Shown: piece by piece, positions 26,417 to 40,118 of the stretch
Numbering within the stretch: position 1 is the stretch's first letter
Layout of the letters: each line of letters starts with the position of its first letter
DNA from: Abditibacterium sp.
GTDB lineage: Bacteria > Armatimonadota > Abditibacteriia > Abditibacteriales > Abditibacteriaceae
Length of the DNA: 64,000 bases
Assembly (NCBI GenBank): GCA_965199495.1
Contig: CBDASK010000003.1
Coordinates: 2,208,001 to 2,272,000 of the forward strand
Reading direction: 5' to 3'
The notes under the pieces: model-generated
Told to the model about the DNA's origin: nothing
Seen by the model: only the letters and a program-made list of their open reading frames with translations
Databases searched by the model: none
Program-made: the position numbers and the translations under genes

Positions 26417-27895
26417 TTATTGTTTCATTAGATCGTCCAACTGGCGTCCGTAATCGCCCACGACACCCATCGCCAGCGAGCCGACGTAGAGGGCGACGCA
26501 CAAAAACGCGATGATTCCCAAAACGGGAACCGCCTGTTTTATCGTGGTTTCGGCGTTAGTTTCCAGGAAATCGGCGGCTTTATCGAGTTGCGTATCCAAG
26601 TCGCCGCTTTCCTCGCCGATGCGCATCATCTGCAAGGCGAGCGGATTGAAAACGCGCGTTTCCTTCATGCACTGCGTCAGGGGGGCGCCCGCGTTGAGTT
26701 GAGGAATCGTGGCGAGTGCGCGCTCAGCCACGGCGCGGTTGCCGCAGGCTTGCGCGCCCAATCGCACGGCTTCGCTTGGCCCGACGCCCGCGCTATAAAG
26801 CGCGCCCAGCGCGCGGCAAAACTTCGCCGAAGCCAACGCGCGCGCGGTTTTGCCGACGATGGGCACCAGCAATTTGATTTCGTCGTAAGTTTTGGCGGGC
26901 GAAAAACCGCCGACTTTGTAATCGTTAATGCGCGAGGTAAACGCCGGTTTGACATAGTGCCAAACTTTGATCGCGATGTAAAGCAGCGCGAGGACGATAA
27001 GGGGCGGCAAGACTTGGCGCAAAAACGCTTGAAAACCGACCAGCACCCAAGGCACGACGCCGGGAATCAAAATCGAGCAAAAAACGATGAGTTTGGGATA
27101 CCATGTTTCGCGTTTGATGGCCTGTTGCAACTGGTAATCTCGCTCGGCGTAGTCGGCCAATCGGGTAAACGAACGCTCCAAAAATCCGCCGCGCTCGCCC
27201 GCTCTGGTGATGCCGATCATGAGCGGGCTGAACAGGCCGGGAAACGCTTCCATGCTTTCCGAAACCGGCCCGCCGGTCAGCGCGCGCCGCGACATTTCCA
27301 CGCTCGCCGTGCGCAGACTGTTGTTGGCCGCGTTTTCCGACATCGTTTGCAACGCGCCGCCGATGCCCGTGCCCGCGTGCATCAGCGCGGCGAGTTGGCG
27401 AAAAAAGTTGGATAAATCTTGAGCGGACGCGTGCAAAAACGGCTGATTGACAAGGGGCGCCGCCGCCGATTGTCCCATCGGTCGCGCAGAGTTCGGATGC
27501 GTCATCGGATGCGCGGGCGGAGCGGGCGCCGCCGTGACCGGATCGAAGCGCGGCGCCGGGTGGAGCGGTTTATGGATGTTCAACGGCGCGCCACTGACCG
27601 GATTGGCCGCCGAATTTATCGGTGGCCCGGTCGGCGTGGCTGCTCTTTCGACGTTGATACTTTCGGCGGGCGAATTTAATGTCGCAACGCCGCCGTTTTG
27701 CGCCGAATTATTAATCGGTGCGCGCGGGCGCAACGGCGCGGCACTTTGGGCGCGCGCCGTGCGCGCTTCGAGCCGGTTGATGAAAAGCCCTTCCGCGCGC
27801 AACGCGTCGAGCGCCGAACTGCGGTCGGCGGCATCGCGGGTGCCGCGCACAATGCGCCCATCAACGGTGCGCGCTTCGTAATTCCAAGTCGCCAT
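26417..27895 (-). CDS. Type II secretion F / PilC-family inner-membrane platform protein
   Basis: FFRQLA..AG, AGERGGFL..F.RLADY, YP and IGEESGDLD..L.KAADF motifs; Pro-rich linker. Confidence 0.9.
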   Translation of the reverse strand: MATWNYEARTVDGRIVRGTRDAADRSSALDALRAEGLFINRLEARTARAQSAAPLRPRAPINNSAQNGGVATLNSPAESINVERAATPTGPPINSAANPVSGAPLNIHKPLHPAPRFDPVTAAPAPPAHPMTHPNSARPMGQSAAAPLVNQPFLHASAQDLSNFFRQLAALMHAGTGIGGALQTMSENAANNSLRTASVEMSRRALTGGPVSESMEAFPGLFSPLMIGITRAGERGGFLERSFTRLADYAERDYQLQQAIKRETWYPKLIVFCSILIPGVVPWVLVGFQAFLRQVLPPLIVLALLYIAIKVWHYVKPAFTSRINDYKVGGFSPAKTYDEIKLLVPIVGKTARALASAKFCRALGALYSAGVGPSEAVRLGAQACGNRAVAERALATIPQLNAGAPLTQCMKETRVFNPLALQMMRIGEESGDLDTQLDKAADFLETNAETTIKQAVPVLGIIAFLCVALYVGSLAMGVVGDYGRQLDDLMKQ

Positions 27896-30485: not shown

Positions 30486-30650
30486 ATGATGAAACAATTT
30501 TTGCAGGAAGAAGAGGGCCAGACCCTCGTTGAATACGGCCTTTTGATCTCGCTCATCGCGCTCGTTGTTATCGCTGTGCTGACGCTGTTGGGCGGCAAAA
30601 TCAAAGGTGTCTTCGGCACCGCGTCGAACTCGATTGTCACCACCACCTAA
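30486..30650 (+). CDS. flp: Flp (type IVc/Tad) pilin, copy 1 (54 aa; not in ORF track)
   Basis: MMKQFLQEEEG^QTLVEYGLLISLIALVVIAVLTLLGGKIKGVFGTASNSIVTTT; SD AGGAG. Confidence 0.93.
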   Translation: MMKQFLQEEEGQTLVEYGLLISLIALVVIAVLTLLGGKIKGVFGTASNSIVTTT

Positions 30651-30962: not shown

Positions 30963-31127
30963 ATGATGAAACAATTTTTGCAGGAAGAGGAGGGCCAGAC
31001 CCTCGTTGAATACGGCTTGTTGATCTCTTTGATCGCTTTGGTCGTCATCGCCGTTTTGACGCTGTTGGGCGGCAAAATCAAAGGCGTGTTCGGAACCGCG
31101 TCCAACTCGATTGTCACCACCACCTAA
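30963..31127 (+). CDS. flp: Flp pilin, copy 2 (identical protein)
   Basis: Same 54-aa sequence, 15 synonymous codon differences; SD GGAGG. Confidence 0.93.
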   Translation: MMKQFLQEEEGQTLVEYGLLISLIALVVIAVLTLLGGKIKGVFGTASNSIVTTT

Positions 31128-34559: not shown

Positions 34560-34573
34560 AAATTAGGCAATTG

Positions 34574-34611
34574 AAAAGCGAGCGAACTTGTTTAGGTTCG
34601 CTCGCTTTTTT
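34574..34611. terminator. Bidirectional terminator
   Basis: aaaagcgagcgaac...gttcgctcgctttttt between convergent genes. Confidence 0.85.
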
Positions 34612-34622
34612 GTTTGATGATT

Positions 34623-36014
34623 TTACGGTCGCTTGTCGCCTGCGGCCAGACGTTTGAGCGCCGCAGTCACGTTCATCATGGAACGGCCTTCGTGATAGCT
34701 TTCCGTCCAACGGTCGCTTTTGACCTGCGCGTCTGGCGGCGGCGAGCCGTCGGGGTTGACATAGGAGAACCAGCCGCCATTGACTGGATCAATTTGGTAT
34801 TGGCGAATGAAATTCCACTGTTTCACGAACGCCAGCCAATAGCGTGGATCGGCGTTGCGGCCCGTGCCGTAAAGCTCGTGCATCAACAGCAAGGCGTTGA
34901 GCGCTTCGGCCTGCGTCCACCAGACTTTATCGGGCTTGACGATGCCACCAAAAACGCCGCCCGCATCAGCCACGCCGCCGATGGTTTGGTCGAAGGCCAC
35001 ATCGAGCGTATGATCAACCAATGCGCGCGCCGCGCGCTTGGTTTTGACATCGCCCCCGCGTCCCAAAATGTGCGCGGCCTCGGTCAAAAGATAGGCGGTT
35101 TCGATGTCGTGGCCATAAGAATCTTCGGCGGGCACGGCGCGCCAATCGGGCGTGAAATATTGATTGAGCGCGCCCGGCTCAACGTAAATTACATCGCGCA
35201 CCAACTCGAATAATTCGTTCAAGCGATTTTTGAGTTGCGGTTCGGGCCAGACTTCGTAGAGCGCGCCGTAGGCTTCGAGCAGATGAATATGCGTATTCAT
35301 GCTTTTGTAGCCGTAGCGCGTGCCGATGAAATCCGATTCTTGATCGTCCGAAACTGGCGCTAAAATCGGCGTGCCATCGCGTTTTAACGCCTCGAAGTAA
35401 CCTTTGTTTTTGTTATCGTGCGCGTGCTTTTCGAGCCAGAAGAAATCTTGCTGCGCCAAACGCAGCGCGTCGGGGTTTTTGGTGGCCTTATAAGCCGCGC
35501 TCAGCGCGTAAATAGCGAAGGCGTTGCCGTAAACGTGCTTCTCGCCATTGCGGTCGGCGACGCCTTTATCCACTTGCCAATAAAAGCCGCCGTTTTGCGC
35601 GTCCCACATCTCGCGGCTCAACTCGGCCACGCCGTGGCTGGCATAATTGCGGTAAATAAATTCTTCGGAAGGCAAGCGCAGCGCGGCCTGCGCCGCCGTC
35701 CACGTCAGGCGCGATTGATAGACGATGGAGCGTTCCGTTCCCGGCAGTTTCGTCCAATCATAAGCGAAGTTTTGGTCGAAACCGCCCTGCTGGAGATTGA
35801 CGGCGGCGGGAAACCATTTTGCCAAAATCTGCGTTTGCAAATTATCCTGCGTCTGTTTGGCGATGGCGTTATATTCAATGGCCGTCGGCGGAAAATACGA
35901 TTTGACGGTATTAGCCGCCACGGCGGCAGTATTGGGCGGTGCGTTTTGCGCCAATGCAATGGTTGGCAAAACGAGCGTCGCAAGAAAAGCGGCAAGCCGC
36001 AATGAATGTTTCAT
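34623..36014 (-). CDS. AGE-family cellobiose/mannobiose 2-epimerase with signal peptide
   Basis: EKHVYGNAFAIY, KSMNTHIHLLEAY, SYGHDIE, KVWWTQAE and YHEGR motifs; N-terminal MKHSLRLAAFLATLVLPTIALA. Confidence 0.88.
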   Translation of the reverse strand: MKHSLRLAAFLATLVLPTIALAQNAPPNTAAVAANTVKSYFPPTAIEYNAIAKQTQDNLQTQILAKWFPAAVNLQQGGFDQNFAYDWTKLPGTERSIVYQSRLTWTAAQAALRLPSEEFIYRNYASHGVAELSREMWDAQNGGFYWQVDKGVADRNGEKHVYGNAFAIYALSAAYKATKNPDALRLAQQDFFWLEKHAHDNKNKGYFEALKRDGTPILAPVSDDQESDFIGTRYGYKSMNTHIHLLEAYGALYEVWPEPQLKNRLNELFELVRDVIYVEPGALNQYFTPDWRAVPAEDSYGHDIETAYLLTEAAHILGRGGDVKTKRAARALVDHTLDVAFDQTIGGVADAGGVFGGIVKPDKVWWTQAEALNALLLMHELYGTGRNADPRYWLAFVKQWNFIRQYQIDPVNGGWFSYVNPDGSPPPDAQVKSDRWTESYHEGRSMMNVTAALKRLAAGDKRP

Positions 36015-36058
36015 ATTTTTTGTGGTATCGCTCACACTCTTCATTAGAAGATGTTGAC

Positions 36059-37552
36059 TTACCCACTAATGCCCGCCGGCAAATCCGATTTATTCAGCAC
36101 GTCGGGCGCGTTGTAAAGCGCTTTGACTTTGGCATCCGATTTCATTTTCTGCGGCCCTTGCGCGCCCGACCACGAAACGAAATACGACCAACGCACGCCG
36201 AATTGTGTCATCTTTTCGATGTCGGGCACGCCACCGACTTCGTTTAACGCGATGAGCTTTTTGCCGCCGTGCTTTTCGTTGAGCATCTCCCATGTCGCAC
36301 TCAGCGGATCGGAAAGATCGCTGGGATATTCGTCGGCGCCCACGACATCCACGACATCGTCGCCGGGATACCAATCGTCTTTGCCTTCGGTCGTGTAAAC
36401 CCAGATAAGGTTGTGCAGATTGTGCTTGACCGTGAGCCGATTATACAGGATGCGCCACAACTTTTTCGAGGCTTCCGGCCCTTTGGCGCCCCACCAAAAC
36501 CAACCGCCTTCGGCTTCGTGGAGCGGGCGCCACAACACGGGAATGCCCGCGTCATCGAACTTTTTCAGTTGAACCGCAATCGCGTCAATGTCGCGCATCA
36601 ACAATTTGTAATCGTCGCCATCGGGATTATCGAGCGCCGCCTGCAAATCGAAAGTCGTGGCGCGCGTATAAAAACCGCTCCACCACAGCGCCTGAACTTC
36701 TTCGCCGTTTTTGTCTTTGTAGTTTTTATCGATCAAGTGCGACGGCGCGTTCCAGTGCCACGACAGCGTGACGATTTGGCCGTTTTGCGCGCGCTTAATA
36801 TACGATTCGCTGGTGCCTTCGGGCTGGGTGCCGTGTTCGAGGCGCGAGGGCGAATAATCTATCAAATCGCCGCCGAAAATCGCGGGTGTAACGCCGAATT
36901 TCTGAGTCAGATCATCGTTGTCGGCTTTTTCATATTGGCCCGACAGCGTTTTCTCTCCGTATTGGCCCACCAAATATTTCATCAACGCGCGCGCGGCGGG
37001 CGTGGCTTTGGCGTTGGTCAACGTCGCGGGCGGCTTGGCCAGAGCAGCCACGCCGGTAGCGGCCACGAAATCGAGCGCGTCAACCTCGTAATAACCCCAA
37101 CCTTTATTGATGGCGATTTGGTTGTCGCCCGCTTTGAGTGCAATTTTGCCCAGCGAAGTCGTGGCAAAAACGTCTTCTGTTTGGGGCAATTTGCCCGCAG
37201 TCTTGACGCCGTTGATGACGAGTTCGGTGCCCTTGTCGCCGCTGGGCGAGCTATAACGCACGCGCGCTTCATAGATTCCGGCTTTGGTGACGGGCAAAGT
37301 CCATTGGATATGGTCGCCATCTTTGGTGAAACCCGAAACGTAACCTGTGCCCGAAAACCCCGCGCGTTTGGTTTCGATTTGCGCACCCATCAGTTGGGCG
37401 TCTTCGGCTTCGAGATGAAGTTTGTCTCCGGTGGACTGTGGCGCCGTGGCTGCATCGGCGACGGCTGCATCGGCGGCGTGTGCTTGTGTGGCGCAACCGC
37501 CGTACGCGACCAGGGTAGAAAGAAAAGCGGCAAGGCGCAGAGTGTGATTCAT
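36059..37552 (-). CDS. GH26 beta-mannanase with CBM35-like module
   Basis: LEAED..GFSGTGYV CBM segment; WHWNAP, WRPLHEAEGGWFWWG, WYPGDD.VD and ALNEVG motifs. Confidence 0.92.
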   Translation of the reverse strand: MNHTLRLAAFLSTLVAYGGCATQAHAADAAVADAATAPQSTGDKLHLEAEDAQLMGAQIETKRAGFSGTGYVSGFTKDGDHIQWTLPVTKAGIYEARVRYSSPSGDKGTELVINGVKTAGKLPQTEDVFATTSLGKIALKAGDNQIAINKGWGYYEVDALDFVAATGVAALAKPPATLTNAKATPAARALMKYLVGQYGEKTLSGQYEKADNDDLTQKFGVTPAIFGGDLIDYSPSRLEHGTQPEGTSESYIKRAQNGQIVTLSWHWNAPSHLIDKNYKDKNGEEVQALWWSGFYTRATTFDLQAALDNPDGDDYKLLMRDIDAIAVQLKKFDDAGIPVLWRPLHEAEGGWFWWGAKGPEASKKLWRILYNRLTVKHNLHNLIWVYTTEGKDDWYPGDDVVDVVGADEYPSDLSDPLSATWEMLNEKHGGKKLIALNEVGGVPDIEKMTQFGVRWSYFVSWSGAQGPQKMKSDAKVKALYNAPDVLNKSDLPAGISG

Positions 37553-37569
37553 GGAAGAATTGGGAAAAG

Positions 37570-37600
37570 AAAAAGGCCGCTAATTGCTTAGCGGCCTTTT
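37570..37600 (-). terminator. Intra-locus hairpin/terminator between lipoprotein and GH26
   Basis: aaaaggccgctaa-ttgc-ttagcggcctttt. Confidence 0.75.
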
Positions 37601-37698
37601 GAATTGAAATTTAACTACTTTGGAAGGTGTTTAAATTTTCAACTCGCCAGAGTGAACAGGGAGAAGGAGTGAGCCAACGTTTGCACTCCCAAGCAGTT

Positions 37699-37962
37699 TT
37701 ATTGTTCTGCTTTAGCGTGCTGTTGAGCGACCGCTGCTGCTCCCTGTTGCGCCGCTTGTGCGCGCGCTTGTTCTGAAGCTGCGCTTTCGGCGGCGCCTTT
37801 GGCAGAGGCAGCCGCAGCCGTTGCAGGATCAACAGCCACATTGGCTACAGTATTTTCGTTGGATTTGCTGCAACCACTCAGAGCGCTGACGCTCGTCAAA
37901 ATTGCAGCTAACGCAAGGTAGTAAAGTGAAGACTTTATGGAACGAAAAACGTTGTTTTGCAT
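37699..37962 (-). CDS. Small Ala/Gln-rich lipoprotein (87 aa)
   Basis: Hydrophobic stretch ending in lipobox LSGC; starts 7 bp after the DUF1559 stop. Confidence 0.75.
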   Translation of the reverse strand: MQNNVFRSIKSSLYYLALAAILTSVSALSGCSKSNENTVANVAVDPATAAAASAKGAAESAASEQARAQAAQQGAAAVAQQHAKAEQ

Positions 37963-37969
37963 GGATGGT

Positions 37970-38785
37970 TTAATAATCGTAGAGTCTGAACGTGGGAGAC
38001 TGTCCCGAAACATCGAACGGGGTGCCAGCTCCATAAATCTGAGTGACCTTCTGGAATTTGACGTGTCCGTCGGCAAACAAGTAATTCGCCCCATCCAAAT
38101 GGCGTTTGGCAGCTCCATCGCGGTCAACCGTGTTCAAATCCTGACAACCGTAACGGCCATCAGCGCTACCGCCGATGATGCCATAGCAGTAAGCACCATC
38201 CTGTCCCGTGTCGTTGGTGTAATTAGCCGTCAAGGCATAACGCTGCTGACCCTTGAATCGCCCATCTTCAATCGGGGTCGTCGGGTTTTGATCTCCGCAC
38301 ATGATACCGATAGATGGACTTTGCAATCTGGCCAGTTTTGCCCCGGTAAAACCTCCGCCGGGAGGATTGGCGATCAGGCCACTGATGAAGTAGTCGGTGA
38401 CATCCGAAACTCCGGCTGAACCGCCGGGGTTATACGCGTCGTAGGGAGTAGCGCCCGATGTCTGCTCACTCGGACACTGAAAGATTTGGTAGCTCTTGAT
38501 ATACGGATTGATGATTTGCACCCAACCAGAGTAGGGCGGCCCGCCATGAGCGACTTGAGGATAAGTCTCATCGTAATCCTGCACATATTGCAGGATGCCG
38601 ATACCGATCTGCTTGAGGTTGCTCTGGCACGACGAGCGACGCGCGTTTTCGCGCGCGCGGGCGAAAACAGGGAACAGAATCGACGCGAGGATCGCGATGA
38701 TGGCGATAACCACGAGAAGCTCGATCAAAGTGAAGGCTGAGCGCGTTTTTGACTGTTGCAGTCCGTTTGCTTTGGTTGAAGACAT
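37970..38785 (-). CDS. DUF1559 prepilin-type N-terminal methylation / H-X9-DG domain protein
   Basis: [46 protein letters not shown]-terminal [16 protein letters not shown]. Confidence 0.93.
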
Positions 38786-38892
38786 AATTTTCTCCGGGCG
38801 CTGAATGCGCCTCAAGTGAAGTTGATGCCATTGGCATCGGTCGGTGGCTCGTGTGAGGAGCGCATCAAGATGGGAAATTTAGCTATCGTTTT

Positions 38893-38948
38893 TGCTAAAT
38901 CCATTTAGCATGGATATGATTATACCCATTTTCGTCAAGTTTCAAACA
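38893..38948 (-). promoter_or_regulatory. LacI-type operator plus extended -10 promoter of the DUF1559 gene
   Basis: TGCTAAATCCATTTAGCA at 38893-38910; TGGGTATAAT on minus strand; near-identical module at 40064-40118. Confidence 0.75.
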
Positions 38949-38973
38949 TTTTAAAGGGGAATTTTTTGAAACT

Positions 38974-40035
38974 TTAAATTCTTTGTTTGGAGGGAGGCCC
39001 ACAAGTGCCGCGCACGATGAGTTGCGTTGGCACTTCGATACAAGAATCGAACTGCAACGAAGCCCCGCCTTTTTCGCTTTGCCCACAGAGTTGCAGAATC
39101 TGGCGAGCAGCCACGCGGCCCATTTGGGTGAAGTCTTGGCGCACCGTAGTCAGCGGCGGATTGGCGAATTGGGCCATCGCGAAATCGGCGAAACCGATGA
39201 TGGACAAATCTTGCGGCACCTTCAATCCCAGTTCGTTGGCGATTTGCAAAGCTGCCATTGCGATGAAATCGCCCATGCAAAAGAGCGCCGTCGGACGCTC
39301 GTCCGCAGACAAACTCAATAGCGTGCGCGCGGCATCAACGCTGGGAGCGAGCAGAGTAAAGTCGCCGTTACGCACGTAATTGTCGGGCAAACTCAGGCCG
39401 TGTAATTCAAGCGCCGCACGAAAAGCCGATTCACGCAGAGGAACAATGGCATCGGGGGCCGCGCCCGCAACCAGCGCGATGCGGCGATGGCCCAGACCGA
39501 ACAAATATTCCACCGCATCGGCGATGCCGCACGCGTCCTCCGAGACGACGGAAGGCAAAGCGCTGTCGCGCGCGCGCGTGTCGAGCAGCAACAACGGATA
39601 TTTGTAGCGCTTGGCCTCGGCCTCAAATAGGGCGACGGCTGGCTCCGACAGGTGCAGTCCGATGGCGCCCTGCAAGCGCAATTCTGAACTGCGCCGCACC
39701 GCGCTCTCCACCATATCCGCGCTACCGCCCAACGGCGTCGGCAGCAGTTTGAGCGTGTAATCGTGCGACTCGATTTCTTCGAGGGCGCCCGCGACCATCG
39801 CGCCGACCTGCTCCCACGCCAAGTCGCCGCCCAAAACGCCGATCATGCGCGTGTTGCCGGTGCGCATCGCGCGCGCGCCGTGGTTGGCGCGATAGCCCAT
39901 CTCTTCCGCCGCCGCCAACACTTTTTGGCGCGTCGCCTCGCTGATGCGCGCTTCTTCGTGGCGGTCGTTGAGAACAAACGAAACCGTCGAAGAAGAAACC
40001 CCGGTGCGCTGCGCGATGTCACTTATTTTTAACAT
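38974..40035 (-). CDS. LacI-family transcriptional regulator
   Basis: ISDIAQRTGVSSSTVSFVLN HTH; VPQDLSIIGF and PPLTTVRQ; SD AAGGAG. Confidence 0.95.
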   Translation of the reverse strand: MLKISDIAQRTGVSSSTVSFVLNDRHEEARISEATRQKVLAAAEEMGYRANHGARAMRTGNTRMIGVLGGDLAWEQVGAMVAGALEEIESHDYTLKLLPTPLGGSADMVESAVRRSSELRLQGAIGLHLSEPAVALFEAEAKRYKYPLLLLDTRARDSALPSVVSEDACGIADAVEYLFGLGHRRIALVAGAAPDAIVPLRESAFRAALELHGLSLPDNYVRNGDFTLLAPSVDAARTLLSLSADERPTALFCMGDFIAMAALQIANELGLKVPQDLSIIGFADFAMAQFANPPLTTVRQDFTQMGRVAARQILQLCGQSEKGGASLQFDSCIEVPTQLIVRGTCGPPSKQRI

Positions 40036-40063
40036 GACGAAAATCTCCTTCACTCCCTTTAGG

Positions 40064-40118
40064 TGCTAAAACGATTTAGCCGAATATGATTATACCCAAT
40101 TCGCCTATTTTTCAAACA
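40064..40118 (-). promoter_or_regulatory. LacI-type operator plus promoter of the lacI-family gene (autoregulation)
   Basis: GCTAAAACGATTTAGC palindrome with central CG; atatgattataccca and ttcaaaca at the same spacing as the 38893 module. Confidence 0.75.

Follow-up and report, generated by a model that had tools for sequence, protein, structure and literature searches.

A LacI-linked DUF1559 pilin-like protein and its predicted partner, a small lipoprotein, in a mannan-processing cassette of Abditibacterium

How polysaccharides pass the outer membrane of glycan degraders without SusC/SusD is an open question, which we address here with a five-gene cassette of an Abditibacterium sp. (Armatimonadota; GenBank assembly GCA_965199495.1, contig CBDASK010000003.1). 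The closest described systems involve pili, pilin-type signal peptides or mannan enzymes. In Akkermansiaceae, a type IV-like pilus of the mucin utilisation locus MUL2 has been connected with attachment to glycans and with their selfish uptake (PMC13174399). The bindosome of Sulfolobus comprises proteins with pilin-type signal peptides that serve sugar uptake and need a type IV filament machine (accessible part of PMC4471445). In Cellvibrio, EpiA and Mgp130A belong to a mannan pathway that runs from GH26 through a cellobiose 2-epimerase (CE) to GH130, with the epimerase predicted to be cytoplasmic (PMC12871903, in its accessible text). The Abditibacterium cassette occupies positions 34623..40118 of the window, by which we mean the whole stretch of 64,000 nucleotides that was analysed (contig positions 2,208,001 to 2,272,000). 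A reading made from the sequence alone had proposed five co-oriented genes here, encoding a LacI-family repressor, a DUF1559 prepilin-like protein, a lipoprotein, a GH26 mannanase and an exported epimerase; open reading frames, all on the minus strand and at the expected positions, and domain matches bear this out.

Like SusC/SusD loci and the Cellvibrio pathway, the cassette clusters a regulator, a surface component and exported mannan enzymes, and it brings GH26 together with a 2-epimerase; unlike them, it has no SusC/SusD, its epimerase carries a signal peptide, and in two relatives the epimerase is fused to GH26. As the sequence-only reading had stated, neither a transporter nor a GH130 gene lies in the cassette. 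No TonB receptor is found at the locus, and the genome has only three, which resemble B12/siderophore types; none of them comes close to the cut-off for SusC. MUL2 is a single locus of machinery genes with an archaeal-type pilin. In the present genome one machine would serve many regulator-linked pilin paralogues, and a separate sugar repressor would control each of them. Bindosome proteins, in turn, are ABC solute-binding proteins of a one-membrane archaeon, whereas here we find a pilin head and no ABC system with the operator. We found no published description of modules that combine a regulator, DUF1559 and carbohydrate-active enzymes (CAZymes), or of the function of DUF6785 (a candidate transporter family, below), in literature whose coverage was thin for subscription papers and bioRxiv supplements; the accessible part of PMC11685898 does not mention pili. 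We conclude that the locus resembles a utilisation locus in its workings without being a SusC/SusD locus. There is good support for its being part of a beta-mannan LacI regulon with a pilin-lipoprotein pair at its head. We propose, with a probability of roughly 0.45, that this pair is an exchangeable glycan-capture unit on a type IV pilus machine within a regulon induced by beta-mannan or glucomannan, capture of glycan on the filament being the most likely mechanism.

The pilin-like protein (37970..38785, minus strand; 271 aa) is a member of the DUF1559 family: PF07963 and PF07596 match above cut-off, and the C-terminal H-X9-DG motif (TIGR04294) is present. In planctomycetes this family is expanded and is frequently flanked by signal-peptide or lipoprotein genes (PMC8567305, in the part accessible), and no function is assigned to DUF1559 in the papers that we found. 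The protein shares with the family (PF07596, 'SBP_bac_10'; TIGR04294) the N-terminal methylation motif, the domains and membership of a large set of paralogues; it is set apart by its place in an Armatimonadota mannan regulon, with a defined operator and a predicted lipoprotein partner, and by a predicted fold that is pilin-like, not that of a solute-binding protein. A type IV pilin helix is indicated by Phe1, Glu5, a TIGR02532 match above cut-off and a helix at residues 20-70 of the structure model, which was built from 83 sequences (pLDDT 90.5, pTM 0.85) and has a type IV pilin fold with large variable loops. When 48,161 chains were searched for similar structures, ranks 1-27 were all pilins or pseudopilins, with the helix packed on the pilin beta-sheet. 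The best match, Thermus PilA4 (Z 5.5, rmsd 3.5, 119 aligned), covers both helix and sheet; this Z is middling, but the list of matches to the model is coherent. Foldseek and a sequence search of solved structures gave helix-only matches. No lectin or substrate-binding-protein fold is among the structural matches listed, and a head of this kind may still bind glycan.

Immediately beyond the pilin gene, a gene at 37699..37962 (minus strand) encodes an 87-aa lipobox protein with an Ala/Gln-rich mature part and counterparts in relatives; it has no Pfam or NCBIfam match. A model of its complex with the pilin head scored 0.61, against 0.14 for the best control; this mark is reached by 116 of 157 solved pairs and by 2 of 215 mismatched ones. 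Agreement between the complex runs is 37% of contacts or more, the pLDDT of the partner is at least 55, and the modelled interface involves residues 194-201 and 211-213 in the variable loops of the pilin. The modelling supports binding between the two proteins. A general rule that pilin genes of this genome are paired with a small lipoprotein gene was rejected (1 of 47 DUF1559 genes versus 21 of 3,045 control genes).

The cassette begins with the repressor gene (38974..40035, minus strand; 353 aa; PF00356, 1e-14; PF13377, 1.5e-34), orthologues of which head the cassette in relatives. Upstream of both lacI (40065..40080, minus strand) and the DUF1559 gene (38894-38909) stands the palindrome GCTAAA-N4-TTTAGC, of which the 4.81-Mb genome has no other perfect copies. 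It is part of a block of about 75 bases common to the two regions, in which an extended -10-like element is followed directly by the palindrome. The conserved -10-like element of lacI lies at 40089-40098, and the duplicated block of the pilin gene (38878..38928, minus strand) has its own at 38919-38928, together with a degenerate second site at 38878-38895. Close variants of the operator are found at the same position in G002, G012, G003, G011, G008 and L077. The pilin-gene block is present in the sister genome G011 and is absent from G002, G012, G003 and L077, where lacI directly precedes the pilin gene. A palindrome over promoters that is conserved with its repressor is what a LacI regulon should have, and we regard it as the predicted operator; a generic promoter scan gave no excess over shuffled sequences (5 versus 3.4). 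Between the lipoprotein and GH26 genes there is a terminator-like hairpin of 13 pairs with a T-run (37571..37600, minus strand), and such a hairpin precedes the first enzyme gene in five of the seven relatives that were folded; another terminator-like hairpin lies at the end of the cassette (34573..34610). Given the internal hairpin, the five genes are probably not one evenly expressed transcript, and expression of the pilin and lipoprotein is probably higher than that of the enzymes.

CE orthologues occur in 13 of 31 genomes, and nine of these 13 have the arrangement LacI-pilin-lipoprotein-CE, on one contig in seven (this genome, G000, and G002, G003, G010, G012, G014 and G020) and by inference across contig breaks in two (G008 and G011). 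The conserved core of the cassette is therefore LacI-pilin-lipoprotein-CE, with GH26 optional: GH26 lies inside two of the nine cassettes and a DUF5060/GH5-like enzyme inside two (G003 and G020). All nine retain a pilin, though its type varies. GH26 was rejected as a conserved partner, since eight of nine GH26 loci in relatives have no cassette and the ninth begins at a contig end; this comparison covered nine of the 11 GH26 loci found in relatives, and two of the nine are CBM35-GH26-CE fusions.

The pilins of these cassettes fall into two clades, Y (G000, G002, G003, G012 and L077) and X (G008, G010, G011, G014 and G020), which are 29-36% identical to each other, no closer than typical paralogues. 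A single clade for the cassette pilins is rejected with an AU p of 1e-80 (quick tree, 37 rows). In the LacI tree, G000 (Y) groups with G011 (X) at 100, and G010 (X) falls within the Y carriers at 99; the epimerase tree agrees with it. The discordance between these trees and the pilin clades implies at least two head exchanges. One can be placed approximately at 38540..38580 by blastn and pairwise alignment of this genome to G011: starting at lacI and running through the promoter, DNA identity is 82.6% as far as about 38559, where the conserved pilin helix ends; it disappears over the pilin head and the lipoprotein gene, is only 69% over GH26 (flanks 83-89%) and rises again to 88% over CE. The signal-peptide region of CE matches that of the fusion protein of G011, and CE is 90% identical between the two genomes despite the different pilin heads. 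The type of lipoprotein tracks the type of pilin head, as judged by eye. In G004, the LacI gene that stands before a Y-related pilin gene is itself split into two frames (L073:9148-10202).

Beyond the cassette, the genome has 47 PF07596 matches and 18 matches to the LacI domain PF13377. The sequence-only reading had suggested looking for enrichment of DUF1559 genes beside LacI genes and CAZymes, and the first linkage is strong: ten of the 18 LacI-domain matches lie within 2 kb of a DUF1559 gene, compared with 3% of genes, a count that none of 20,000 random draws reached, and nine of the 15 strong LacI-domain matches are near a DUF1559 gene. A further four DUF1559 genes adjoin AraC regulators. 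Several individual loci can be mentioned here. A glycan island at about 4,355,000-4,497,000 of contig C3 has ten DUF1559 genes, mostly behind LacI or AraC, adjoining GH2, GH28, GH78, GH92, GH97, GH106 or GH127 genes. At C3 2,419,000-2,441,000 (L022, L023), two LacI-DUF1559 cassettes are followed by at least six sulfatase genes, and at C3 2,965,500-2,968,400 (L026) there is a tandem array of short DUF1559-like prepilin genes with degenerate N-termini.

Machinery on which such pilins could be assembled is encoded in the genome, with a pilB-pilT-pilC-pilD operon, a second ATPase gene, a second pilC-like gene, eight secretin matches and Tad genes. The presence of several secretins and of two genes each for PilB/GspE-like ATPases and PilC/GspF-like proteins would also suit a machine like that of type II secretion, in which the pilin-lipoprotein pair would be a cargo adaptor or dedicated pseudopilin for export of the co-regulated enzymes over the outer membrane. 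The pseudopilin EpsG is indeed the second-best structural match of the DUF1559 protein (Z 5.0, tied with a PilA4 entry), and every cassette enzyme examined has a signal-like N-terminus. Against this, the head differs between G000 and G011 while CE is 90% identical, and the eight GH26 loci mentioned above do without such a cassette. Type II systems, as far as they are known, also share a single set of pseudopilins, and we consider an export role improbable. The second, stand-alone PilC/GspF-like platform gene (PF00482, two domains) lies at window positions 26417-27895 (minus strand), 6.7 kb from the cassette; tandem Flp/Fap pilin genes, identical at 147 of 165 bases, lie at 30486-30650 and 30963-31127 (plus strand); and three secretin genes stand in tandem, apart from pilus operons, at C3 931,419-936,789 (L063).

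We also searched the genome for dispersed operator sites with a matrix made from six cassette operators. Five matches of at least 20 bits were found, with 0.8 expected, two of them being the cassette sites. One of the others (C3:3802874) immediately precedes the gene of a secreted GH5 mannanase-like protein and is kept in G011; the remaining two fall inside genes, towards their 5' ends, one in a DUF5060/GH5-like gene and one in a GH2 beta-mannosidase gene. A weaker operator-like site, at 15.5 bits, separates a GH26-like gene from a DUF6785 gene. Of the operator scans, only that with the matrix is used as evidence; an IUPAC operator pattern was dropped as evidence because it had been written after seeing the G000 matches, and it gave two matches in each relative against 1, 2, 0 and 4 for the reversed control.

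The GH5 mannanase-like gene is directly followed by another gene of the DUF6785/DUF6784 type. A model of its product (pLDDT 91.8), which is encoded outside the window, has an OPT fold: it matches barley YS1 (PDB 7wsr/7wst) with a Foldseek E of 2e-8, TM of 0.63/0.71 and 14% identity, and its atlas cluster has 11% PF03169. No match to DUF6785 was found at the sequence level among solved structures. Known OPT/YSL cargo is a metal-chelate or peptide; DUF6785 shares the predicted fold of that family, while an oligosaccharide cargo is suggested here by the neighbouring genes. The genome has eight DUF6785/DUF6784 genes (C3: 537230, 1829793, 2059393, 2867800, 3360470, 3780463, 3799498 and 4493298), four of which adjoin glycoside hydrolase genes, and one of the eight follows an arabinose operon. 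We regard the eight predicted proteins as candidate oligosaccharide importers of the phylum, which would offer an inner-membrane step but no outer-membrane step. In G002 (L183), a DUF6785 gene is divergent from a LacI paralogue and is accompanied by GH43 genes and a pilin gene.

A number of observations weigh against capture of mannan on a filament. The first concerns processing, since the residue at -1 of the prepilin cleavage site is Ala, as in 35 of the 47 paralogues, and not Gly. Gly at this position is described as critical for prepilin processing in the accessible part of PMC4471445, which makes processing of the protein as a type IV pilin uncertain. Without polymerisation, the helix could keep the pilin in the inner membrane, where it would act with the lipoprotein as a periplasmic binding or sensing protein that feeds the OPT-fold transporter, in the manner of archaeal bindosome proteins. 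The lipoprotein partner that the models predict would fit such an arrangement, and dozens of paralogues exceed the needs of a filament. The candidate transporter, too, has an operator-like site. The sequence-only reading had named a transporter elsewhere under the same operator as evidence that would tell against it, and the site before the GH5 gene, with an OPT/YSL-fold gene behind it, partly answers to that description, although this candidate accounts for an inner-membrane step only. We nonetheless think it unlikely that the pair works solely at the inner membrane: Glu5, a complete hydrophobic helix and the sheet of a pilin are all retained, the structural matches listed include no substrate-binding-protein or lectin fold, and passage over the outer membrane would be left unexplained with only three TonB receptors.

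Other observations on the same side concern the regulon, the complex and the substrate. Two of the three operator matches outside the cassette fall inside coding sequence, no match to the operator pattern precedes lacI in three more distant copies (G020, G014 and the second copy of G008), and one of the three complex runs scored only 0.13. No pilin is seen beside CE in four of the 13 CE-bearing genomes, and GH26 in only two of nine cassettes weakens a reading as SusD-like mannan capture. Clade Y proper is seen only with the mannan cassette, whereas clade X substitutes for it there and also flanks other glycan genes, namely GH74-like/GH31, GH9 and deacetylase genes. These enzymes mostly act on beta-1,4-linked backbones. 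The interchange of X and Y, together with the presence of X at other glycan loci, makes a strictly mannan-specific SusD analogue doubtful. Of the earlier proposal that the pilin-like protein is a substrate-specific capture unit in the position of SusD, strict mannan specificity is weakened by the finding of two swapped heads; the part that stands draws on the pilin fold, the pilus machine, the small number of TonB receptors, the linkage to LacI and the conserved cassette and operator. Enrichment beside CAZymes was not significant, at 25 of 47 DUF1559 genes versus 5-6 of 18 random windows of 13 kb (p 0.10-0.18), where glycoside hydrolases, lyases, esterases or sulfatases within 6.5 kb were counted by hand and random windows were scanned for proteins of more than 250 aa only. 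Ten of the 25 CAZyme-adjacent genes fall in one island, and the other 22 of the 47 paralogues lack any glycan-degrading gene at that distance. The weakness of the CAZyme link and the concentration in one island suggest that the DUF1559 family is not only about glycans.

Expression data from the same phylum are mixed. In Fervidibacter sacchari, DUF1559 genes are expressed, some very highly (PMC11535203, accessible part). Among the rows labelled DUF1559 in its supplementary file 3 (rows labelled only 'prepilin' were left out, and the count has no genome-wide control), six of 30 transcripts peak at least 4-fold over the median on one polysaccharide, with a range of up to 43-fold. None of these peaks can be clearly assigned to locust bean gum, and the proteins often peak differently from their transcripts. 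The broad expression of most of these paralogues, as far as the accessible part of that source goes, the 22 paralogues away from glycan genes and the free exchange of heads at the same locus would all fit a pair that has no import role and is a sugar-induced adhesin for plant particles, attachment being the role proposed for MUL2 (PMC13174399), or a largely neutral passenger swapped through the near-identical helix, with pressure from phages as one conceivable cause. Loss would be expected of a passenger, but the pilin gene is intact in nine of nine LacI-CE cassettes, and G000 and G011 hold a second promoter-operator solely for it. We give this explanation a low probability.

If the pair does capture glycan on a type IV filament, the steps might be as follows. 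A manno-oligosaccharide would release LacI from the common operator, which is predicted from its sequence and conservation, and the internal hairpin would cause pilin and lipoprotein to be made in excess over the enzymes. Through the modelled contacts, the lipoprotein may serve the pilin head as a chaperone or docking partner. The head would become part of a PilB/PilC/PilT filament with affinity for beta-1,4-glycan, and this filament would hold the glycan at a secretin or draw it through. Exported GH26 and GH5 enzymes would cleave the polysaccharide, and mannose at the reducing end would be converted to glucose by the exported epimerase, to judge from its family. Finally, an OPT/YSL-fold DUF6785 protein may import the oligosaccharides for the GH2 beta-mannosidase, with no mannosylglucose phosphorylase needed. 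A wider scheme, which we put forward as doubtful, is that Armatimonadota import glycans without SusC/SusD by a bank of regulator-controlled pilin heads, chaperoned by lipoproteins and recombined at the helix, on one retractile pilus, with glycan passing via the secretin, periplasmic trimming that includes the exported epimerase, and import by DUF6785 proteins.

DUF1559 is a very large family of unknown function, and the cassette provides a small testable case, with a named substrate class, a defined operator, two natural heads, a predicted partner with interface residues and a candidate inner-membrane carrier. DUF6785 gains a predicted transporter fold. In addition, a cellobiose 2-epimerase that bears a signal peptide, and is at times fused to a mannanase, points to a mannan route without the usual phosphorylase.

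The enzymes of the cassette are an exported CBM35-GH26 beta-mannanase of 497 aa (36059..37552, minus strand; PF02156, 6.5e-72; PF16990, 8.6e-27) and an exported cellobiose 2-epimerase-like protein of the AGE family (34623..36014, or to 36044, minus strand; 463 aa from the likely start). The best solved relatives of the latter are cellobiose 2-epimerases (E 5e-54), and it has all four motifs (an Arg and three His) that we take to be those of the active site, so that it can be assigned to this class. A signal-like N-terminus, judged by hydropathy only, is present in 12 of 12 epimerase orthologues examined. The genome has one strong GH130 match, which resembles glycosidase-type structures and not phosphorylases. 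CE is fused to GH26 in G011 and G022; the secreted CBM35-GH26-CE fusion proteins of 937 and 924 aa (L052:44-2854 and L050:7135-9906) come from two genera. Elsewhere, a partial open reading frame (L006:3-899) has a match to the thiol-activated cytolysin domain (PF01289, 1e-16).

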